Shown here in pieces: positions 20,279-32,649 of a stretch of DNA of 33,568 nt. The stretch comes from a virus (taxonomy: Duplodnaviria > Heunggongvirae > Uroviricota > Caudoviricetes). Location of the stretch: the IMG/VR virus record IMGVR_UViG_2534681672_000004. One strand, given 5' to 3'. A model generated the notes under the pieces. It did not search any database and had not been told where the DNA came from. It was given only the letters and a program-made list of their open reading frames with translations. A program made the position numbers and the translations under genes. Numbering within the stretch: position 1 is the stretch's first letter; each line of letters begins with the position of its first letter.

Positions 20279-20442
20279 GAGTCAGGTGTCCTGAGTTGGG
20301 TTATCGGGTCGGTTGTAGTTTCCCGACTCAGCCGCTCACCAGCCACCGGTTACAGAAGTGCAACCCCTGACACAACAGGGGGTTAGCGATTCATCCCCCC
20401 TGAATCTTTAGCCTTGCCGTGTACTCATCACGGCGAGGTTTT

Positions 20443-22212
20443 ATGACCACTACAACCGACACATCACTACTCAACGATCCGCGACGACAGGCCGCGCTTT
20501 TGTTCTGGCAGGGCTATTCCGTGCCACAAATCGCGGAACAGTTGCAGGTCAAGCGCCCCACGGTGCAGAGCTGGAAGCAGCGCGATAAATGGGAAAAAAC
20601 CGCACCGTTAAACCGGGTCGAGTTCACGCTCGAGGCTCGGCTGATTCAGCTCTATGCAAAGCCTGACCTGACGGCTCATGACTTTAAGGTCGCGGATTTT
20701 CTGGCGCGCCAGATGGAACGCCTCGCGCGGGTCAGTCGTTACGGTCAGACAGGTAACGCAGCGGATTTAAACCCGAACGTGGCCAACCGCAACAAAGGGG
20801 AAAAGAAGAAGCCGAAAAAGAACTTTTTCAGCGAAGAGGCTATCGACAAGCTCGAAGAGATTTTCCTCGACCAGTCTTTCGACTATCAGCTCGAGTGGTG
20901 GCGCGCGGGGCTGGCGCACCGTATCAGGCACATCCTGAAATCACGACAGATTGGAGCGACATTCTACTTTGCGCGAGAGGCGCTGTTACAGGCGCTGAAG
21001 ACCGGCCACAACCAGATATTTTTATCGGCCAGTAAGACACAGGCCTATGTATTTCGAAAATACATCATCGCCTTTGCCCGACTGGCTGGCGTCGAGCTCA
21101 CCGGCGACCCGATTGTGCTCGGCAACAATGGCGCGGAGCTGATGTTTCTCGGCACCAATGCCAACACGGCGCAGAGCCACAACGGCGACCTGTATGTCGA
21201 TGAAATTTTCTGGATCCCCAACTTCCAGAAGCTGAAGCGCGTTGCCGGTGGCATGTCTTCACAGGAGCATTTGCGCACGACCTATTTTTCGACCCCCTCA
21301 TCGCTGGCGCACGGTGCCTATCCGTTCTGGTCGGGTGAGCAGTTCAACAAGGGACGCTCAGACAAGAGCGAGCGCGTCGATATCGATATCAGTCACGCAG
21401 CACTCGCGAAGGGTGTCGCTTGCCCGGACGGCCAGTGGCGGCAGATTGTCACCATCGAGGACGCACTCGCTAAAGGGTGCACACTGTTTAACATCGACAC
21501 GCTGAAGCGCGAGAACAGCGTCGATGAGTTCCGTAATCTGTTTATGTGCGAGTTCGTCGACGATAAAGCGTCGGTATTCCCGTTCGAAGAGCTGCAACGC
21601 TGCATGGTCGACAGCCTCGAGAAATGGGAGGACTACACGCCATTTGCCGACCGGCCTTTCGGTCACCGCCCGGTGTGGATTGGTTACGACCCGTCATTAC
21701 GCGGCGACAGCGCCGGGTGCGTCGTCATCGCGCCGCCAGTCGTCGCCGGTGGACGATTCCGAATCCTCGAGCGCCATCAGTGGAAAGGGATGGATTTTGC
21801 TCAACAGGCCGAATCCATTCGCGAGCTCACGCAGAAATATACCGTCGAATACATCGGCATCGATGCGACCGGGCTCGGACAGGGCGTTTTCCAGTTAGTG
21901 CGCTCATTCTACCCGGCAGCGCGTGAAATCCGCTACACGCCGGAAATGAAAACCGCAATGGTGCTGAAAGCCAAAGACACCATTCGCCGCGGTTGCCTCG
22001 AGTACGACGTCAGCGCGACCGATATCACGCAGTCGTTTATGTCTATCCGCAAAACCATGACCAGCAGCGGGCGCAGCTCGACCTATGAGGCCAGCCGCAC
22101 CGAGGAAGCCAGTCACGCCGATCTCGCGTGGGCAACCATGCACGTATTAATCAATGAGCCGCTGACCGCCGCGACCGGCGAACAGTCATCCAGTATTATG
22201 GAGTGGAACTAA
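20443..22212 (+). CDS. P: Terminase large (ATPase) subunit gpP
   Basis: Start at ATG 20443 with GGCGAGG RBS; about 590 aa; divergent from O and followed by Q as in P2. Confidence 0.9.
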   Translation: MTTTTDTSLLNDPRRQAALLFWQGYSVPQIAEQLQVKRPTVQSWKQRDKWEKTAPLNRVEFTLEARLIQLYAKPDLTAHDFKVADFLARQMERLARVSRYGQTGNAADLNPNVANRNKGEKKKPKKNFFSEEAIDKLEEIFLDQSFDYQLEWWRAGLAHRIRHILKSRQIGATFYFAREALLQALKTGHNQIFLSASKTQAYVFRKYIIAFARLAGVELTGDPIVLGNNGAELMFLGTNANTAQSHNGDLYVDEIFWIPNFQKLKRVAGGMSSQEHLRTTYFSTPSSLAHGAYPFWSGEQFNKGRSDKSERVDIDISHAALAKGVACPDGQWRQIVTIEDALAKGCTLFNIDTLKRENSVDEFRNLFMCEFVDDKASVFPFEELQRCMVDSLEKWEDYTPFADRPFGHRPVWIGYDPSLRGDSAGCVVIAPPVVAGGRFRILERHQWKGMDFAQQAESIRELTQKYTVEYIGIDATGLGQGVFQLVRSFYPAAREIRYTPEMKTAMVLKAKDTIRRGCLEYDVSATDITQSFMSIRKTMTSSGRSSTYEASRTEEASHADLAWATMHVLINEPLTAATGEQSSSIMEWN

Positions 22213-23240
22213 TGAGCAAGAATCGCAACAACAAGCGACAGCAGCCGCGCCCCCAAAGTCACACCGCCGCATCGGCACAGAGCATGGAGGCATTCACCTT
22301 TGGCGAGCCGACGCCGGTACTCGATCGCCGCGACATTCTCGATTATGTGGAGTGCATCGACAACGGCCAATGGTATGAGCCGCCGGTGAGCTTCTCCGGG
22401 CTGGCGAAGAGCATGCGCGCCGCCGTTCATCACAGCTCACCGATTTACGTGAAGCGTAATATTCTGGTGTCGACCTACATCCCGCACCCGCTGTTATCGC
22501 GTCAGGATTTCAGCCGGTTCGTGCTCGATTATCTGGTATTTGGCAACGCCTTTCTCGAAGAGCGTCGCGGTCTGACTGGCAAGCCGCTAAAGCTGGAGAC
22601 CTCACCGGCCAAATATACCCGTCGTGGCGTTGATGATGACGTGTACTGGTATATCCAGTCCTACACGCAACCGCACCAGTTTTCGCCCGGTTCCGTCTTC
22701 CACCTGCTTGAGCCTGATATTAATCAGGAGCTGTACGGGATGCCGGAATACCTGAGCGCACTCAATTCAGCCTGGCTGAATGAGTCAGCGACACTGTTTC
22801 GTCGCAAGTATTACCAGAACGGCGCGCACGCAGGGTACATCATGTATGTGACCGATGCCGCTCAGAACAGCACTGACGTCGAAGCGTTGCGAAAGGCGAT
22901 GCGCGACTCGAAAGGGCTCGGCAATTTTAAGAATCTGTTTTTCTACGCACCGCACGGTAAACCGGATGGGATTAAAATTGTGCCGCTGAGCGAAGTCGCG
23001 ACGAAGGATGATTTTTTTAATATCAAGAAAGTCAGCGCCGCTGACCTGCTCGACGCGCACCGCATCCCGTTCCAGTTGATGGGCGGCAAGCCTGAGAACG
23101 TCGGCTCAGTGGGCGATATTGAGAAAGTGGCAAAAGTATTTGTTCGCAATGAATTAACTCCATTGCAAGATAGGATTCGTGAATTAAATCATTGGTTTGG
23201 TGATAATTTAATTAAGTTCAAGCCGTATACCTTTGATTAA
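22212..23240 (+). CDS. Q: Portal protein gpQ (last ~35 codons AT-rich, possibly chimeric)
   Basis: ATG 22212 overlaps the P stop (TAATG); about 342 aa, close to P2 Q length. Confidence 0.9.
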   Translation: MSKNRNNKRQQPRPQSHTAASAQSMEAFTFGEPTPVLDRRDILDYVECIDNGQWYEPPVSFSGLAKSMRAAVHHSSPIYVKRNILVSTYIPHPLLSRQDFSRFVLDYLVFGNAFLEERRGLTGKPLKLETSPAKYTRRGVDDDVYWYIQSYTQPHQFSPGSVFHLLEPDINQELYGMPEYLSALNSAWLNESATLFRRKYYQNGAHAGYIMYVTDAAQNSTDVEALRKAMRDSKGLGNFKNLFFYAPHGKPDGIKIVPLSEVATKDDFFNIKKVSAADLLDAHRIPFQLMGGKPENVGSVGDIEKVAKVFVRNELTPLQDRIRELNHWFGDNLIKFKPYTFD

Positions 23241-23256
23241 GTATGAATGCAAAAAA

Positions 23257-23286
23257 TCCAGAGTCCATTATAATAATGACTCTGGA
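23257..23286. terminator. Hairpin terminator between convergent Q and the cargo operon
   Basis: Perfect 9-bp stem TCCAGAGTC...GACTCTGGA with an AT-rich loop; on the minus strand it is followed directly by TTTTTT, so it probably terminates the cargo operon. Confidence 0.5.
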
Positions 23287-23296
23287 TGAAAATGTT

Positions 23297-23983
23297 TTAT
23301 TGCTTATCTTGTGGTGGTGGAACCTCTTTTTCTAAATTATCTACATACTCTCTAATATTGAATGCTTTGTTTTTCCTTATTTCGGTAGTGTTAACCTTAC
23401 TAACACCATCACGAATGTTTTTATTTATGGTGTCTATTAATTTTTGTCTTTCTTGTTCTGTTTTTATTATTTCACTTAAGAATGACTTTGCGTTTCTTGA
23501 AATGTCCGTCTGTCTATTAATGAATAGTATCGCATACACTGAAAAAACCAAGCAAGTAGTCGTTAGTGCGGAATTAAAAAATACCCCATAATAAACATTA
23601 ACTTTTGTTATTGACGCTGATAACGTTAGTGATATCAAAAAAAACAAAATCAGGGTAAAAATATATGCAATGGTTACTTTGTTTTTAGTGGTGTCAAGAA
23701 TGTATGAAGTTCTTTGATCATCAAAGTAATCCTTTATCCTTGATGGAGTGTTTGCGGGGAGTTCTAACTCCTTTATTTTATCATCAGCATCAATTAGTCG
23801 CTTAAACATGAGGCTAATGATTACGGCGCTAAAGACAGAGATCCCCTTTGAAATTATAGGATCGAAATCAATTAAAAATGAGTATTTTGAATAAACAAAA
23901 ACAATAACAAAACCACATATAAGCCCAATTACAATTGAGCTTGCTATGTTTTTTGCATATGTTTGTAACGTATTGTTTATCAT
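23297..23983 (-). CDS. Four-TM membrane protein, second gene of an AT-rich two-gene cargo operon (candidate effector)
   Basis: Four hydrophobic helices followed by a charged C-terminal tail; ATG overlaps the upstream gene's TGA (ATGA coupling); strongly AT-rich. Confidence 0.7.
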   Translation of the reverse strand: MINNTLQTYAKNIASSIVIGLICGFVIVFVYSKYSFLIDFDPIISKGISVFSAVIISLMFKRLIDADDKIKELELPANTPSRIKDYFDDQRTSYILDTTKNKVTIAYIFTLILFFLISLTLSASITKVNVYYGVFFNSALTTTCLVFSVYAILFINRQTDISRNAKSFLSEIIKTEQERQKLIDTINKNIRDGVSKVNTTEIRKNKAFNIREYVDNLEKEVPPPQDKQ

Positions 23984-24963
23984 GGGTTAATTACTCCGGT
24001 GTCTAGTAAGCGCAATAACCATGAAATCATTTCTTCAGCAACGTTGTCAGCAATTAGCATTCCATTGCTGTATTCAATATTAACTGAATCCTTTAGTTGA
24101 ATCTCATCATTCCTGAGTATTCCTGCACCTTTTAACTCAATTGTTAAGCTTTCATCTCTATTATCAACCAAGCCTTGTGTAATTTTACGCAACATGTCTT
24201 GCTCAGACTCGCTTGCTTTATATTTATACCCAATGGAAATATCAATTGATAGAGATTCCCTGTCAGGTGAACCATCATTTAAAATGGTATTTTTCTTCAT
24301 TTCATTAATTCGATGTTCACCTACGAGCGTTTTTAATAGCTCACTAGCTGTATCATCAATATTATTTCCATAGTAGGTTAAAGGCAGCTTTAAGCTAACA
24401 TTTTTTACTATGTTACGTTTTAAAAAATCCGTATTTAGAGACAGGTTGTTTGCCTGTAAAACGATGAAGTTATCATCAGTAATAGATAGGTTGTCTTGTA
24501 GTATGAAATTTATATAATTTTCAATATCTTTTATTCTAATAGATCTGCTTTGCAGAATTATGAAGTGGTTCTTAATCACACCAATGTATGCAATGCTTTC
24601 TAAATACTCTCTAGCATTCCCACTTGATAAATTTAATGTCTCGTATGTTAAAGCTGTTTTAGCATAATCGCTAACAGAGAAAACAGGAATGCTACTACCC
24701 GGTTCAATATAGACAATTTCCGCAAAAAACATTCCATGAATTTCTTTGCTATTTGAAAGAACCATGTGGGCGTGAGCAGCGACATTACCATTATTATCTG
24801 GAACATCAGGGAAGAATAATCTATCAGCAACATTTGGAACCTTGATTTTCACAAGGTTTGCCAACCTATCTTGCAGGTTTGATGTTAAAAGAGCATCCTT
24901 TTTAGGAAGCATTATTGCATGGCGATAATGCAGCATTTTACTCTTATAATCTTGCGTTGCCAT
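23980..24963 (-). CDS. Hypothetical cytoplasmic protein, first gene of the AT-rich two-gene cargo operon (candidate sensor/enzyme)
   Basis: 327-aa ORF with GAGGGA RBS before ATG 24963; no motif I can recognise; between portal gene Q and cos. Confidence 0.7.
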   Translation of the reverse strand: MATQDYKSKMLHYRHAIMLPKKDALLTSNLQDRLANLVKIKVPNVADRLFFPDVPDNNGNVAAHAHMVLSNSKEIHGMFFAEIVYIEPGSSIPVFSVSDYAKTALTYETLNLSSGNAREYLESIAYIGVIKNHFIILQSRSIRIKDIENYINFILQDNLSITDDNFIVLQANNLSLNTDFLKRNIVKNVSLKLPLTYYGNNIDDTASELLKTLVGEHRINEMKKNTILNDGSPDRESLSIDISIGYKYKASESEQDMLRKITQGLVDNRDESLTIELKGAGILRNDEIQLKDSVNIEYSNGMLIADNVAEEMISWLLRLLDTGVINP

Positions 24964-25034
24964 AGAATCCCTCTTGCTATGAATATGTTATACACGGAGC
25001 GAAGCAATTATGTATTGTATTGCTCTGGCGCGCA

Positions 25035-25053
25035 ATGCTATCCCCGCCACGCC
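25035..25053. other. cos site (19-nt cohesive-end sequence, 186-like)
   Basis: Minus-strand reading GGCGTGGCGGGGATAGCAT differs at one position from the phage 186 cohesive end as I recall it (GGCGTGGCGGGGAAAGCAT); P2 is GGCGAGGCGGGGAAAGCAC. Confidence 0.6.
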
Positions 25054-25334
25054 TGCCCGCTTTATGGGGCGGTTTTAATGCAGTTGCATGACCACTCTGG
25101 ATACGCGCCAGCTGTGGCGGCACACGGCTAGAACGTGCAACCCATGTCGCATGCAAAATCATGCGCCTGATGCATGCACAGCTAAAAAACGGGAAATTCG
25201 TGGAAAAATGGCATAAAAAACGACTTTGAAAGTGCCGGCCATGGTCAGATTTTCAAGGGCAGGCTAACGCCTCGCGCGGCTCGTTGTTCAAACCCGCTGA
25301 CGCCAAAATCTAGTTTTTGCATCAGCGCGTTTAC

Positions 25335-25517
25335 CTATTCAGCCTTATAGAAAATTTCGTCTTTTTCTTCGTCGCTTTCGCTGTTAGCTAGGCCGGCAAT
25401 CAGAGTTAGTGCCAGCTTCAAATCTGCCGGTTTGCAGTTGGCAATAAGAGATATCTCGGCGATAAATTGCACACAAGCCCACTTTTGCTGCGTTCGGCTG
25501 AAATGTTTCCCAACCAT
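25335..25517 (-). CDS. Small SOS-regulated protein, possible Tum-like antirepressor
   Basis: 60-aa ORF with GGGAGGG RBS; a near-consensus LexA box lies about 20 bp upstream; position downstream of A matches tum in phage 186. Confidence 0.5.
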   Translation of the reverse strand: MVGKHFSRTQQKWACVQFIAEISLIANCKPADLKLALTLIAGLANSESDEEKDEIFYKAE

Positions 25518-25537
25518 GAAATCCCTCCCAATAGGAT

Positions 25538-25557
25538 TACTGTGTATTTATACAGTA
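25538..25557. promoter_or_regulatory. LexA operator (SOS box)
   Basis: TACTGTGTATTTATACAGTA matches the E. coli LexA consensus TACTGTATATATATACAGTA at 18 of 20 positions, with perfect CTGT-N8-ACAG. Confidence 0.8.
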
Positions 25558-25706
25558 TAACGTATTGGCAAAAGATGGGAAGAGAAAAAGTGAATCGGGT
25601 AGGTGTTGTATGTACATGATATGGATGTAAATTAATCACCTGTGAGTTTTGATGTTTCTGCCAGCACCGCAACACGATTAAGGATTTCCCTAGGCTTTGC
25701 CTGAAG

Positions 25707-27854
25707 CTATGGCGCTGCGGAGAAAATTTCACCTTTGGACGTTCCACGCAACCATTTACCGTTAATACAACTTTTGCCACCTGCTATCAGGTGCAGGGCT
25801 TCTCCCCGGCTGATGGTAATGCCGGTTGTCAGACGGATCTCGTCGATAGTTTTTTCTATCGGAGCACTTTGCTCATCTGTTCCGTGGATAAATTTCGGCC
25901 TCTTAGGTGGCTTTGGTTTCCTGATTCGGTTCGTCAGCTCTCGCCTTTCACGTCGACTCAGGGGTTTTGATAAATCGAGTTCCGGTGGATCGCTTTCGCT
26001 TCCCGTACAGTTATTGACAGAACTCCAAGGGACGGCGAAGCCGTCCTTAACGTCAACGGCCAAATCAACGGCACGCTTCGGAACAATTTTCCATTGCGTG
26101 AGCCGGGTTAAAATCGGAGTGCCAACACCAACGGTGGAGTCGTACACACCACGAATGCAGACAGTTTCCTCACCATACTGGTTAAACTCGGTGCGCGGTT
26201 CATAAAGCGTACGCACCTGCAAATCATCGCGACGGACAAACGGACCGCCCTGCGCATTAACATAGCCAGCCCAATCACCGGCATCGGCGGCATCATGGAC
26301 AGCCGCAAACTCAACACTTAGACCGTGCGCGGTCTCGGTATCTGCAAGGCGACGCAATTCACGATAAACAGTCACTGGTGCACCACCGATAAACTGAAAC
26401 TGACGAATATGCCAGCGCGCCGCCCATGCTGAAACGGCGGGGGCTGTCTCTTTCAACAGTTCACCGTTTTCGTCATCGGTTTCGTCATCAAGAGCGTAAC
26501 CGTCGATATTTTTCGAGATGTATTTCGCGACGTAGCCGGTTGCGCTGCCTTTCTCCGGATCAATGGCTTCTGCGTGGAAACGTGCTTTTTTGGCTTTATC
26601 GCTTTTGAGTTCGTGAAAATCTTCTTGCCATGCGTAGTCCCGAATAATGCCACGAACGGTATCGACGTCCTCCGGGAGCATAAACATCAGCATATGCCAG
26701 TGAGGGCACCCGTCATGGTGAGGCTCTGCAACGCGGATCCCGAAAATACGAATGTCTTCACGGTGGAGTTTTGCGCGAATGCGTGCCCACAGGCCAGTGA
26801 GATAACATTGCGTATCGGATGGATTGGATCCATTCCATTTGGTGTTACGGTAGCCTGCCTTTGTCGTGGCGTGATATTTAGACGGTGCGGTCAGGGTGTA
26901 AAACTCACCAACATAACCGAGCTCATTGCAGATATTTTCAAACCCACGAATGCGGGTCATAAGCTCACAGCGTCGAATCGCAGAGTTAGCGACTGAACCA
27001 TCGTATTTTTCAATCAGGCTGATACGGTTGCCGTCTTCGTCTTCAAGCTCCAGACCTTTGAGAAATTCGCGCGTCCGGCGCTTCTGTTCACGCCAGTCTG
27101 TCACGCAGTTTTTACTCGCGTAGACATGTTTTTTCTTACTGACATTTCCGATTGCGATTTGCAGGTGTTCGCGCCACGCAGCCGCAATGCGACGCAGACG
27201 GCCACGCCACCATTTTTCCGAAAACATACGGGCAATTGCTGGAGCGACTTTATCCTGATCCCAATATTTATCCCGCGACCGTTCCCACTCTGGTGGCATT
27301 ATCCTGAATTGCTGAGTGATGAAACCAGCATGCATATACCAGGCATTTAATGTCTCCAGTTCACACATGTCAGAATCGTCAATGTTGACTAACTCTGCAC
27401 GGATAAAATCGGCGATATCAGCAGCCAGCAGGTCGATGTCGGCGCGTGCCATATCCGGGAGTCGGTTGTATCTGGCGACTATGTTGACCATGCGAGACGC
27501 CAGATATTGCATAAGCTGAGTATCGAAATGACAACCGAAAACAGCGGCTGATACGTTGCTGTTAATACCGGTACACTCGTATTTTTTTGCGACCAGTTCA
27601 AAACGCGGCAATGCCTTTTTGCAGAAGCTTATTAAAAAAGCATTGGCTCGTTGACTGCCCTGATTTTGCTCCAGCACCGCAGCAGTGCGATAAACGTCAA
27701 AACGTACACACTCGGGCTGGAGGGAAAGCACCTTTCTAGCATGCAGCAAAGCCGCGAGCATACGGTCGCGGCGATACTGTTGGTCGTAGGTAAGATATGG
27801 ACTGGCTATTGCCGACCGTGGAGCATTCCACGGAAACGCGAATTGAACAGCCAA
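25707..27854 (-). CDS. A: Replication initiation protein gpA (rolling-circle initiator)
   Basis: 715-aa ORF; region ...IRVAEPHHDGCPHWHMLMFM... and ...YVAKYISKNIDGY... with the active-site Tyr context characteristic of P2/186 A. Confidence 0.9.
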   Translation of the reverse strand: MAVQFAFPWNAPRSAIASPYLTYDQQYRRDRMLAALLHARKVLSLQPECVRFDVYRTAAVLEQNQGSQRANAFLISFCKKALPRFELVAKKYECTGINSNVSAAVFGCHFDTQLMQYLASRMVNIVARYNRLPDMARADIDLLAADIADFIRAELVNIDDSDMCELETLNAWYMHAGFITQQFRIMPPEWERSRDKYWDQDKVAPAIARMFSEKWWRGRLRRIAAAWREHLQIAIGNVSKKKHVYASKNCVTDWREQKRRTREFLKGLELEDEDGNRISLIEKYDGSVANSAIRRCELMTRIRGFENICNELGYVGEFYTLTAPSKYHATTKAGYRNTKWNGSNPSDTQCYLTGLWARIRAKLHREDIRIFGIRVAEPHHDGCPHWHMLMFMLPEDVDTVRGIIRDYAWQEDFHELKSDKAKKARFHAEAIDPEKGSATGYVAKYISKNIDGYALDDETDDENGELLKETAPAVSAWAARWHIRQFQFIGGAPVTVYRELRRLADTETAHGLSVEFAAVHDAADAGDWAGYVNAQGGPFVRRDDLQVRTLYEPRTEFNQYGEETVCIRGVYDSTVGVGTPILTRLTQWKIVPKRAVDLAVDVKDGFAVPWSSVNNCTGSESDPPELDLSKPLSRRERRELTNRIRKPKPPKRPKFIHGTDEQSAPIEKTIDEIRLTTGITISRGEALHLIAGGKSCINGKWLRGTSKGEIFSAAP

Positions 27855-28795: not shown

Positions 28796-29305
28796 TCATA
28801 CCAAACCGAATGTTGCGCCAATGCCGGTCATGGTGTCGACGACGCTCGACATTGCCGGGTTAGCCTGGAGGCGAGCCTGTAACGCCAGCGCCGACAATGA
28901 CAGCATGCGAATACCGGCGTTAACGCTTTCAACCATGTTGTGTTTACGAGCAGAGGTCAGGCGTTCATCAGATGCAGCACCGTTCGCCAGTTCGCCGAGT
29001 TCGCTCATTGCGCGCATGACATAGGACTGCAATTTATCTTTAGCCAACTCATTAACCGGCACACAAGGTAGACAATGGATCTGCGCCAGAAAGCCATCAA
29101 CGAGGGTTGAGTCTTCGGTCAGATCAGTCAGCAGCCATAACTCAGGCGGTGTGAACTGGTGAGGCTGTTCCGGGTTAAGTTTGTTACGTAACGTCTGAAC
29201 ATTCATACCCGCATGCTCGGCCAGCTTCGCCATATTGTGACGCTGCGCGAAAGCCCGGCACGCTTCGTCATAGTGGGGATGTTTGGAAATTTGAAAATCA
29301 AACAT
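28796..29305 (-). CDS. cII: CII-like transcriptional activator (phage 186 CII homologue)
   Basis: 169-aa protein; sequence MFDFQISKHPHYDEACRAFAQRHNMAKLAEHAGMNVQTLRNKLNPEQPHQFTPPELWLL... is near-identical to 186 CII as I recall it. Confidence 0.85.
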   Translation of the reverse strand: MFDFQISKHPHYDEACRAFAQRHNMAKLAEHAGMNVQTLRNKLNPEQPHQFTPPELWLLTDLTEDSTLVDGFLAQIHCLPCVPVNELAKDKLQSYVMRAMSELGELANGAASDERLTSARKHNMVESVNAGIRMLSLSALALQARLQANPAMSSVVDTMTGIGATFGLV

Positions 29306-29565: not shown

Positions 29566-29690
29566 AAGTAATCATCTCCGGTTACTAGTTGGTTTGGTGC
29601 ATTGGCGTGCATTTTTAAATTCAAGCGAGAATCTTATCTCGAAAAAGCGAGATGTCAATTTGGATTTTCGCGATAACTCGGATTTTTAAG
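29566..29690. promoter_or_regulatory. Divergent pR/pL switch region with candidate CI operator repeats
   Basis: Repeated AAGCGAGA / TCTCG elements forming palindromes (GCGAGA-N5-TCTCG at 29625-29641; TCTCG-AAAAAG-CGAGA at 29637-29652) between apl and cI. Confidence 0.5.
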
Positions 29691-30269
29691 ATGAAATTGG
29701 ATGAGTTAGAGGGTGGAAAAGCAGTGCTGCAGCGCATCCTTGATGCGTATGGCTTCACCATGCAAAAACAACTCGGTGACTTGCATGAGCTGTCATCGGG
29801 AACAATCAGCACTTGGGTTCGGCGTAATTTTTTCCCCGGGGATGTTGTTGTTGCATGCGCTTTGGACACTGGGGTGTCTTTACGTTGGTTGGCAACAGGG
29901 AAGGGGAACAAGTTTGATGCAGACCATACTAATGGCGAAATGAAAACATTAGACCGATTGGATATTGTTGCAGGTAAGCTGCAGGAAAACGGTCATTGGA
30001 TTGTTGATGCTAACCTCTTTTCTACTGAGGCGACGCACCCCAATTACATAGTAAAAGGCCAGCAGTCCTGGATAGTTGATTTTGATATGACTGATATAGC
30101 AAATGGGCGATGGATGCTCAGTATCGACGGGGATCATGATGTCTATGACGTTGCAAGGATCCCGGGGAACAGAATAAAAGTCAGCAACGCTGATGCCGAT
30201 TTTCAATGCTCAGTTTCTGAGGTTAAGTGTATTGGCATGGTGCTGGTAAGCCTGACGAAATCTAGCTAA
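29691..30269 (+). CDS. cI: CI immunity repressor (186-type)
   Basis: Start MKLDELEGGKAVLQRILDAYGF...; N-terminal HTH pattern resembles 186 CI as recalled; first gene of the leftward-equivalent operon ahead of int. Confidence 0.75.
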   Translation: MKLDELEGGKAVLQRILDAYGFTMQKQLGDLHELSSGTISTWVRRNFFPGDVVVACALDTGVSLRWLATGKGNKFDADHTNGEMKTLDRLDIVAGKLQENGHWIVDANLFSTEATHPNYIVKGQQSWIVDFDMTDIANGRWMLSIDGDHDVYDVARIPGNRIKVSNADADFQCSVSEVKCIGMVLVSLTKSS

Positions 30270-30273
30270 CGAT

Positions 30274-30815
30274 ATGAGTGTTAAAAAACTGACATCGGGT
30301 GAATGGCTTTGTGATTTCCGCGTCGACGGGGCTGAAAGTCGCCGCGTGCGTAAGAAGTTTTCAACCAAAGGTGAAGCCGTTGCCTTCGAGCAGTATTACC
30401 GAGAAGAGGCACAAAATAAGCCGTGGATGGGTGAGAAGGAAGACCGTCGACGTTTGAGTGAACTGATTGAGCTGTGGCATAACCTCCATGGCCAGTCGCT
30501 CGCTGCCAGCAAATCGCGATTGGCCAAACTGCACATTGTTTGCCGGGGTCTTGGCGACCCAATCGCTACCCAGCTTACCGCCAAAGATTTCGCCCATTAT
30601 CGGGATAAACGTCTCAAGGGTGAAATCGACAATGGCTATCACGCAAATTCTGAAAAGTGGATTGCGAAACCTGTGACTGTGAACCGGGAACAACAGTACC
30701 TCGAAGCTGTTTTCAATGAGCTGAAGCGCTTGGGTGAGTGGAGTCTGCCAAATCCTCTCGAAGGTGTGCGAGTTTTCAAAGAAGCCGAAAAAGAAATGTC
30801 TTGGCTTACCCAGCC
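30274..30815 (+). pseudogene. int: Integrase, N-terminal fragment (interrupted by IS10)
   Basis: Reading frame ends ...KEMSWLTQP then a stop created inside the IS10 end; continues in frame at 32145 once IS10 and one target-duplication copy are removed. Confidence 0.85.
30807..30815. repeat. IS10 target-site duplication, left copy (TACCCAGCC)
   Basis: Identical 9 bp immediately flank both IS10 ends. Confidence 0.85.
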
Positions 30816-30860
30816 CTGATGAATCCCCTAATGATTTTGGTAAAAATCATTAAGTTAAGG

Positions 30861-30930
30861 TGGATACACATCTTGTCATATGATCAAATGGTTTCGCGAA
30901 AAATCAATAATCAGACAACAAGATGTGCGA
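30861..30930 (-). ncRNA. IS10 RNA-OUT antisense RNA (approximate position)
   Basis: Placed from established IS10 organisation (pOUT transcript antisense to the 5' end of tnp, near the outside end); coordinates not read from the sequence. Confidence 0.4.
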
Positions 30931-32131
30931 ACTCGATATTTTACACGACTCTCTTTACCAATTCTGCCCCGAATTACACTTAAAACGACTCAACAGCTTA
31001 ACGTTGGCTTGCCACGCATTACTTGACTGTAAAACTCTCACTCTTACCGAACTTGGCCGTAACCTGCCAACCAAAGCGAGAACAAAACATAACATCAAAC
31101 GAATCGACCGATTGTTAGGTAATCGTCACCTCCACAAAGAGCGACTCGCTGTATACCGTTGGCATGCTAGCTTTATCTGTTCGGGCAATACGATGCCCAT
31201 TGTACTTGTTGACTGGTCTGATATTCGTGAGCAAAAACGACTTATGGTATTGCGAGCTTCAGTCGCACTACACGGTCGTTCTGTTACTCTTTATGAGAAA
31301 GCGTTCCCGCTTTCAGAGCAATGTTCAAAGAAAGCTCATGACCAATTTCTAGCCGACCTTGCGAGCATTCTACCGAGTAACACCACACCGCTCATTGTCA
31401 GTGATGCTGGCTTTAAAGTGCCATGGTATAAATCCGTTGAGAAGCTGGGTTGGTACTGGTTAAGTCGAGTAAGAGGAAAAGTACAATATGCAGACCTAGG
31501 AGCGGAAAACTGGAAACCTATCAGCAACTTACATGATATGTCATCTAGTCACTCAAAGACTTTAGGCTATAAGAGGCTGACTAAAAGCAATCCAATCTCA
31601 TGCCAAATTCTATTGTATAAATCTCGCTCTAAAGGCCGAAAAAATCAGCGCTCGACACGGACTCATTGTCACCACCCGTCACCTAAAATCTACTCAGCGT
31701 CGGCAAAGGAGCCATGGGTTCTAGCAACTAACTTACCTGTTGAAATTCGAACACCCAAACAACTTGTTAATATCTATTCGAAGCGAATGCAGATTGAAGA
31801 AACCTTCCGAGACTTGAAAAGTCCTGCCTACGGACTAGGCCTACGCCATAGCCGAACGAGCAGCTCAGAGCGTTTTGATATCATGCTGCTAATCGCCCTG
31901 ATGCTTCAACTAACATGTTGGCTTGCGGGCGTTCATGCTCAGAAACAAGGTTGGGACAAGCACTTCCAGGCTAACACAGTCAGAAATCGAAACGTACTCT
32001 CAACAGTTCGCTTAGGCATGGAAGTTTTGCGGCATTCTGGCTACACAATAACAAGGGAAGACTTACTCGTGGCTGCAACCCTACTAGCTCAAAATTTATT
32101 CACACATGGTTACGCTTTGGGGAAATTATGA
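30923..32131 (+). CDS. tnp: IS10 transposase
   Basis: 402-aa protein MCELDILHDSLYQFCPELHLKRLNSLTLACHALLDCKTLTLTELGRNLPTKARTKHNIKRIDRLLGNRHL..., recognised as IS10 transposase from memory. Confidence 0.95.
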   Translation: MCELDILHDSLYQFCPELHLKRLNSLTLACHALLDCKTLTLTELGRNLPTKARTKHNIKRIDRLLGNRHLHKERLAVYRWHASFICSGNTMPIVLVDWSDIREQKRLMVLRASVALHGRSVTLYEKAFPLSEQCSKKAHDQFLADLASILPSNTTPLIVSDAGFKVPWYKSVEKLGWYWLSRVRGKVQYADLGAENWKPISNLHDMSSSHSKTLGYKRLTKSNPISCQILLYKSRSKGRKNQRSTRTHCHHPSPKIYSASAKEPWVLATNLPVEIRTPKQLVNIYSKRMQIEETFRDLKSPAYGLGLRHSRTSSSERFDIMLLIALMLQLTCWLAGVHAQKQGWDKHFQANTVRNRNVLSTVRLGMEVLRHSGYTITREDLLVAATLLAQNLFTHGYALGKL

Positions 32132-32144
32132 GGGGATCTCTCAG

Positions 32145-32153
32145 TACCCAGCC
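32145..32153. repeat. IS10 target-site duplication, right copy (TACCCAGCC)
   Basis: Identical to 30807-30815. Confidence 0.85.
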
Positions 32154-32649
32154 TCAAATTCGCGAAGTGCTCAATGCTTGTGAGTCATACGGGAAAATTT
32201 ATTTAACCCGTATCGTCAAAGTGTGCTTAGCGACTGGTGCTCGATGGAGCGAGGCCGAGCGTCTTACTCGTTCACAGCTTTCACCCCACAAGTTGACTTT
32301 CACTAAAACGAAGGGAAAGAAGAATCGTACAGTACCGATCCCTCGGTGGCTATATGACGAGTTGGCTCCTTTACAGGGAAAAATGTTCCACCCCTGCTAT
32401 CAGGAGTTCAAGAAAATGCTCGCTCTGACCGATATAGAGTTAGCTGAAGGGCAAAAAACGCATGTGTTACGTCATACATTTGCGAGTCACTTTATGATGA
32501 ATGGTGGGAACATTTTAGTACTGCAACGAATCTTGGGCCATTCTAACATTAGGGAAACCATGAGATACGCTCATTTTGCACCAGATCATTTAGAAGAAGC
32601 TGTAACTCTTAACCCTATTTCTAATTTAACAGGATTATATGATGAGTGA
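32145..32649 (+). pseudogene. int: Integrase, C-terminal catalytic fragment (tyrosine recombinase)
   Basis: Contains ARWSEAERL, HVLRHTFASH and RETMRYAHF (R...HxxR...Y catalytic residues); in frame with the N-terminal fragment across the IS10 junction (...TQP|QIREVL...). Confidence 0.85.

Follow-up and report, generated by a model that had tools for sequence, protein, structure and literature searches.

The locus considered here raises the question of which function is encoded by two adjoining genes, called A and B below, that lie beside the cos site of a temperate phage. They are located on the minus strand of a 33,568-nt viral sequence (IMG/VR record IMGVR_UViG_2534681672_000004; this whole stretch is referred to as the window), which is a prophage of the P2 family whose immunity genes are of the 186 type. 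Our analysis indicated that the cassette formed by A and B is probably a RexAB-type two-component exclusion (abortive-infection) module, carried as cargo of a cos-proximal hotspot in a 186/P2-like prophage. This explanation was the best supported because protein A is predicted to have the RexA fold, its partner is predicted to span the membrane with four transmembrane (TM) segments, the order and coupling of the two genes are fixed, and relatives of the pair are syntenic with the rexAB slot of lambda.

Gene A (23980-24963, minus strand; WP_000235290) encodes a soluble protein of 327 aa, and gene B (23297-23983, minus strand; WP_000609549) encodes a predicted inner-membrane protein of 228 aa; both were taken from the list of open reading frames (ORFs), and B was characterized by hydropathy. 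The stop codon of A and the start codon of B overlap by 4 nt in an ATGA motif (23980-23983, minus strand), through which the two genes are, as read from the overlap, translationally coupled. The minus-strand cassette spans approximately 1.7 kb, is bounded by a terminator and is AT-rich, with a GC content of 0.29-0.36 over approximately positions 23200-24850, whereas the terminase and portal genes that flank it have 0.52-0.60. An intrinsic terminator at 23251-23287 (minus strand) faces the end of the portal gene Q; its hairpin occupies 23256-23287, and its U-run extends to 23251. The RNA fold of the hairpin had an energy of -15.9 kcal/mol (z = -4.87), and none of 200 shuffled sequences was equally stable; the hairpin was missed by a consensus terminator scanner. 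An earlier note on this DNA had described a coupled pair of genes for a 327-aa soluble protein and a 228-aa four-helix protein, an AT-rich composition against a GC-rich backbone, and a hairpin with a T-run that sets the pair apart. The ORFs, the overlap, the four hydrophobic segments of B, the GC values and the stability of the hairpin all bore this out, and the description of the pair as a self-contained two-gene accessory unit of abortive-infection-like architecture (a soluble protein plus a small membrane protein) also stood.

A GAGGG Shine-Dalgarno-like motif is located approximately 7 nt upstream of gene A on the minus strand. Within the 71 nt that separate cos from the start codon of gene A, we read by eye a weak candidate sigma-70 promoter at 25007-25035 (minus strand), consisting of TTGCGC, a 17-nt spacer and CATAAT. 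It agrees with the consensus at 8 of 12 positions, falls below the threshold of the promoter scanner and was not reported by it; we infer only that a promoter may lie between cos and gene A.

Protein A matched PHROG 3482, a family for which no function is assigned, at 7.5e-35. Comparison of both window proteins with PADLOC, Pfam and NCBIfam yielded no significant match, the hits to MgtE, ArcB and DUF3908 being sub-threshold noise. An exhaustive profile search with the A family retrieved 502 clusters (50% identity) when the cutoff was E <= 1e-3 and 276 when it was tightened to E <= 1e-10, and the cluster representatives are nearly all 315-360 aa long; a deep-alignment word search for A homologues gave at least three further proteins. 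No meaningful Pfam or PADLOC match was found among 138 A-family members. The source names of family members in these searches were all "hypothetical protein", and none of the 10 cluster representatives that we looked up had an informative name. A homologue of A in an Acinetobacter phage (L001 4001-5002, PQ859669) was labelled "DefenseFinder protein" by its depositors, and the PADLOC models miss it.

A model of protein A built from the 138-sequence alignment reached a pLDDT of 90.2, and a Foldseek search of a Protein Data Bank (PDB) copy current to April 2026 returned only two significant chains, both of RexA (E 3e-5 and 1.7e-4), with 159 residues aligned to RexA at 11% identity. According to this model, protein A has the fold of lambda RexA, and the pair includes a soluble component with a RexA (RdgC-like) fold; RdgC is a structural relative of RexA (PMC11077077). 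Sequence searches of the PDB with protein A, either as a single sequence or as a profile, gave nothing meaningful; the sole match was a VWA2 chain (E 0.69), which is unrelated. The earlier note had found no motif that could be assigned in either protein. That statement holds for the profile libraries, none of which assigns a function, but not for the fold of A, which Foldseek relates to RexA.

Protein B contains four hydrophobic segments (residues 13-31, 42-60, 103-121 and 137-155) in a 2+2 arrangement and ends in a charged C-terminal tail of approximately 70 aa. Lysine and arginine are abundant in the loop between TM2 and TM3 and in the tail, a distribution that fits a predicted topology with both termini in the cytoplasm (N-in/C-in). 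Gene A is accordingly followed immediately, on the same strand, by a gene for a small four-TM partner, as in Rex-type systems. Many B proteins carry a conserved L..E.RRL-like motif in the loop that joins TM2 to TM3.

The pairing of A with B was conserved in every relative that we inspected. A small same-strand ORF lies directly downstream of A in all 42 loci examined, which comprised 13 phage, satellite and metagenome loci and 29 GTDB loci; the earlier note had proposed co-occurrence as a check, and the pair does recur together in prophage and satellite accessory loci. The GTDB loci belong to Gamma- and Betaproteobacteria plus two odd metagenome-assembled genomes and were found with a sub-alignment of distant A members, a locus search of the GTDB representative genomes with the close-family alignment having found nothing. 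In these 29 loci, the partner ORF encodes 161-225 aa, and its start invariably lies -41 to +31 nt relative to the A stop codon. It scores four TM segments in 23 of the 29 by a crude hydropathy test and fewer in the rest. The B proteins are connected by a chain of significant BLASTP matches, which indicates that B co-diverges with A.

The genomic positions of these relatives point in the same direction. The upstream neighbour of the pair was a same-strand CI-type repressor with helix-turn-helix (HTH) and S24 domains in 6 of 10 cases tested, and in phage Perceval and the Acinetobacter phages the pair likewise lies downstream of a CI-type repressor. This repressor-then-pair layout, which is frequent among copies in lambdoid prophages, is the cI-rexA-rexB arrangement of lambda. 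When the two nearest genes on either side of each GTDB locus were surveyed, the commonest Pfam families were Peptidase_S24 (7 proteins), HTH_3 (6), Phage_antitermQ (6), DUF968 (5) and holins (4 proteins from two families); some copies lie between the antiterminator gene Q and the lysis genes.

Both genes appear in a variety of elements. Among phage records, the pair was found in Perceval, five Acinetobacter phages, SfIV and Stx2a-converting phages; it was also found in a Vibrio prophage, in two metagenome contigs, in a second Escherichia coli P2-like prophage, where it again lies beside the portal gene, and in an Aeromonas satellite-like element, where it follows the primase gene. A ParAB-carrying phage-like contig contains the pair at L015 4333-6721, with a HicB/HicA toxin-antitoxin pair immediately after it. 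In an Enterobacter P4-like satellite (L008 5588-7643; L009 329-2384), a pair 40% identical to that of the window is located between psu and int, that is, in the psu-cos-int hotspot. The cos site of this satellite has 1 mismatch to that of P2; it precedes A by 395 nt and has the orientation seen in the window, so that the module follows shortly after cos in helper-type as well as satellite-type elements. These positions suggest that helper phages and satellites exchange the module around cos. Two further loci (L004 3836-5399 and L003 2405-3827) represent distant pairs in the Stx2a-converting phages of E. coli O157:H7 and in Shigella phage SfIV. In the Stx2a-converting phages, the pair lies between antiterminator gene Q and a DNA methylase gene, just upstream of stx2, and in SfIV, B is apparently truncated by IS1.

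We then compared the surroundings of the window copy with those in P2. The cos region at 25028-25082 (minus strand) contains a core 19-mer at 25035-25053, GGCGTGGCGGGGATAGCAT, which has 3 mismatches to the P2 cohesive end and gave 0 chance matches in 100 shuffles; 49 of the 55 bases of 25028-25082 (89%) are identical to positions -28 to +26 of P2 cos. In P2, approximately 160 nt containing the terminator tQ separate cos from the stop codon of Q, whereas the corresponding distance in this phage is 1787 nt. The cassette is therefore an insertion between cos and Q, and the earlier note was correct in placing the pair between the portal gene and cos, where P2 has a short stretch. The position of orf91-tin-old in P2 is nearly empty here (approximately 650 bp, 25083-25706), and the entire hotspot cargo of this phage is on the Q side of cos. 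A single 60-aa ORF (25335-25517, minus strand; WP_000232871) is present on the replication-gene-A side of cos; it had no match in Pfam and could be an accessory or regulatory component. Around these elements, we located the terminase gene P (20419-22212, plus strand), the portal gene Q (22203-23240, plus strand), which is convergent with the cassette and is annotated as a phage portal protein in the identical RefSeq locus, and replication gene A (25707-27854), whose longest ORF encodes 715 aa from a TTG start. The immunity genes are CII (28796-29305) and the CI repressor (29652-30269).

In P2-like phages, the interval between gpA and gpQ that contains cos has been reported to be an anti-phage hotspot (Rousset 2022, PMC9122126), and it is rich in validated defence systems (PMC9122126). 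The window shows this arrangement: next to cos, variable genes separate replication gene A from portal gene Q. Table S5A of that study contains arrangements of the type "hypothetical + hypothetical + hypothetical" made up of WP_000232871, WP_000609549 and WP_000235290 (PMC9122126), and RefSeq assigns the same three accessions to this locus. In Table S5B, the identical A and B sequences are entered as system #72, with 58 occurrences, no domains, no function and the comment "4 TM in protein 1" (PMC9122126). The pair is thus already catalogued without a function, in a locus that is a known hotspot, and the word "undescribed" in the earlier note was an overstatement. A 2026 preprint on the P2 and P4 hotspots named several new systems, none of which has this architecture. 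The cassette occurs at no less than 99.9% identity in 13 of 5426 complete E. coli genomes.

The sequence evolution of the pair indicated that it has been maintained. Against a relative 93-99% identical, A had a dN/dS ratio of 0.03 and B one of 0.11. Purifying selection thus acts on both genes, and on these values we rejected the possibility that the cassette is decaying DNA. B diverges faster than A in the same locus pairs (93% vs 99% identity and 31% vs 63%; L012, L013 and L017). The rest of the prophage is less well preserved. The integrase gene is apparently split by an insertion sequence, a DDE_Tnp_1 transposase (30923-32131) standing between an Int_N ORF (30274-30819) and a catalytic-domain ORF (32128-32649), and on this gene structure the prophage is probably unable to excise. 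In E. coli PCN033, the cassette region (window positions 23180-25100) is 99.9% identical, and the annotation gives the adjacent replication gene A (L054 5453-7675) as a pseudogene interrupted by a stop. A prophage that decays while its cassette stays intact and constrained fits selection for a function that benefits the host.

If the cassette is a RexAB-type module, its mechanism can be outlined by analogy with lambda RexAB and with two Rex-like systems, RexABpp and Sucellos, from which we infer DNA binding, interaction between A and B, pore formation, an anti-phage phenotype and its targets. Protein A would be a cytoplasmic sensor with a RexA/RdgC-like fold, probably a DNA-binding dimer, and protein B a four-TM inner-membrane protein that probably oligomerises to a channel or pore. 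The lysogen would produce both proteins from the cassette's own promoter, at a ratio fixed by translational coupling. Infection by another phage would activate A through either a phage protein or a DNA-protein intermediate of replication or recombination. Activated A would in turn trigger B, whereupon the membrane would be depolarised or permeabilised, growth would stop and the infection would be aborted.

Several observations weigh against this interpretation. The Pfam models for RexA (PF15969) and RexB (PF15968) were matched by 0 of 138 A-family and 0 of 37 B-family members, whereas lambda RexA and RexB, used as a positive control, matched them at 1e-97 and 8.5e-92, and PADLOC had no match for the pair or its family. 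The hhalign probability was below 1% for the A family (16 or 138 sequences) against lambda RexA alone or a 4-sequence profile, and also for the B family (11 or 37 sequences) against RexB; the Rex profiles were very shallow (1-4 sequences for RexA) owing to the narrowness of the lambda RexA family, which the phage collection contains in just 19 phage records, and HHpred with deep profiles might still find more. Since the sequence comparisons with lambda RexA were negative, our claim is one of fold-level similarity plus context, not of demonstrated homology. The Rex-type assignment of B is drawn only from its predicted topology and its position, and B is 84 residues longer than RexB, with a charged tail that has no counterpart in RexB. 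The window copy does not follow a repressor gene; it is located approximately 4.7 kb from the CI gene, beside cos. The pair is absent from the text of the supplementary file of Rousset 2022 that gives the sequences of the cloned systems and, as far as that text goes, system #72 was apparently not assayed. In the Rex-like system of mycobacteriophage Butters, the effector roles of the two proteins are reversed (PMC12894663). Finally, the Rex mechanism itself is incompletely understood.

These points leave room for other readings. There is a small but appreciable chance that the A-B family is an independent and mechanistically distinct lineage, not a diverged Rex, in which an RdgC/RexA-like DNA clamp would sense foreign DNA ends or intermediates of replication or packaging and would gate a new type of pore through the long, charged cytoplasmic tail of B.

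A reversal of roles of the kind described for Butters gp30/gp31 (PMC12894663) is quite unlikely. Soluble A would then be the toxic or antiviral effector, and membrane-bound B would sequester or restrain it until infection. The same architecture and fold evidence speaks for this arrangement as for the RexAB-type one, and the faster divergence of B would be as compatible with an adaptor or anchor as with an effector. However, the membrane protein is the effector in 4 of 5 Rex-like systems reviewed (PMC12894663), Sucellos needs both of its genes and its SclB component is predicted to form pores, and B has been kept as a four-TM protein in the family (23 of 29 by the hydropathy test above).

It is similarly improbable that the module serves mainly the prophage's own life cycle, in the lysogeny-lytic switch or in DNA handling, with exclusion as a side effect or absent. 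Lambda RexA can act in this way independently of RexB; RexA binds DNA non-specifically and promotes the lytic transition (PMC11077077). The position of many A-family members directly after the CI repressor, which in some lambdoid phages is taken by RdgC-like genes (PMC12315714), would suit such a role. Yet the pair adjoins cos in the window and in the P4-like satellites, at a distance from the immunity region, and it moves as AT-rich cargo among unrelated elements. Its membrane partner is also invariably retained, and a purely DNA-level role would not need B.

Small prophage membrane proteins often block injection, and the pair adjoins HicAB in one locus. B might on these grounds have an envelope function of its own (superinfection exclusion, a block to DNA entry, or an addiction or toxin-like activity) and be the sole active component, the RexA-like fold of A being incidental. 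We regard this as very unlikely, since co-inheritance and coupling of B with A are strict over approximately 20-100% sequence identity, and purifying selection is stronger on A than on B. A simple toxin-antitoxin pair was rejected on the evidence considered for these rival explanations. A Kiwa-like system, which the combination of a four-TM protein (KwaA) with a soluble DUF4868 protein of approximately 320 aa (KwaB) superficially resembles, is effectively refuted: neither window protein nor any of the 138 family members matches KwaA, KwaB or DUF4868 in PADLOC or Pfam, the gene order is reversed, with the soluble protein first, and the top structural match is RexA rather than a Kiwa component.

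Taken together, the pair is most likely, by analogy, a RexAB-type module from a large unannotated family in a known hotspot. The kind of system is already known, and the value of the assignment lies in annotation rather than in a new type of system. It provides a functional hypothesis for a widespread pair labelled "hypothetical" in PHROG 3482, in system #72, and in the Stx2a-converting, Shigella SfIV and Acinetobacter prophages, a family that current defence-annotation hidden Markov models (PADLOC 2.0, Pfam) miss. The A family, with approximately 500 clusters, is far broader than the lambda RexA family. If the assignment is confirmed, prophages throughout the Proteobacteria would commonly employ Rex-type exclusion, which would then not be a curiosity of lambda, and the family would offer many natural variants for studying how membrane partners are triggered by RexA-like sensors, a question approximately 70 years old.

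The closest parallels among known systems are Rex-like. The A-B pair resembles lambda RexA/RexB (RexA, PDB 8TWQ) in having a soluble protein, predicted to be of the same fold, followed on the same strand by a four-TM protein, in being borne by a prophage and, in many relatives, in standing immediately downstream of a CI-type repressor. It differs from lambda RexAB in protein size (327 aa for A versus 279 for RexA; 228 aa for B versus 144 for RexB) and in gene spacing, rexA and rexB being separated by 15 nt whereas A and B overlap. Unlike lambda rexAB, the window copy is located beside cos in a P2/186-like phage and has its own terminator. Its position also differs from that of the old and tin genes of P2, which lie on the replication-gene-A side of cos, while the cassette lies on the Q side.

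The same combination of a cytoplasmic protein (there approximately 340-370 aa) with a four-TM protein is found in the actinobacteriophage systems Sbash gp30/31, CarolAnn gp44/43 and Butters gp30/31. These Rex-like systems are expressed from the prophage and confer heterotypic defence, and their RexA homologues form dimers that bind DNA (PMC11077077). They operate in Gram-positive hosts, unlike the A-B pair; when the phage collection was searched with protein A by tblastn, no actinobacteriophage match was obtained, and the Sbash, CarolAnn and Butters proteins were not compared with it directly.

Sucellos (SclA/SclB), from the chromosomal integron of Vibrio cholerae, needs both genes and aborts infection (bioRxiv 10.1101/2024.07.02.601686); SclB is predicted to be pore-forming, and homologues of the system are found mostly in prophages (bioRxiv 10.1101/2024.07.02.601686). 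Judged by its description only, Sucellos is like the A-B pair in consisting of two genes with predicted structural similarity to RexAB that Pfam models miss, but it resides in an integron cassette (probably VCA0367-0368), whereas the A-B pair occupies prophage and satellite slots.

RexABpp (PP_5643/PP_5644), of Pseudomonas putida prophage P1, also requires both genes for defence, and overexpression of its RexA leads to membrane damage that depends on RexB (PMC12894663). His-tagged RexApp has a mass of 37.5 kDa, compared with 36.9 kDa for A, and the RexABpp genes lie near hicAB2, much as the pair in the ParAB-carrying contig adjoins HicAB. PP_5643 was related to RexA by HHpred at 98% probability, whereas hhalign related the A family to nothing; the two results are not comparable, the RexA profile used here having 1-4 sequences. 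The N- and C-termini of RexABpp deduced from published primers (MHRTATFV...; ...NKQSRLMV), the only parts compared, match no retrieved A-family member, and the 5' end of the RexABpp gene, used as an exact-DNA query against the viral and metagenome collections, gave 0 matches. RexABpp (PMC12894663) and Sucellos (bioRxiv 10.1101/2024.07.02.601686) demonstrate that Rex-like pairs that are missed by Pfam or are recognised only by HHpred and structural comparison can defend their hosts.

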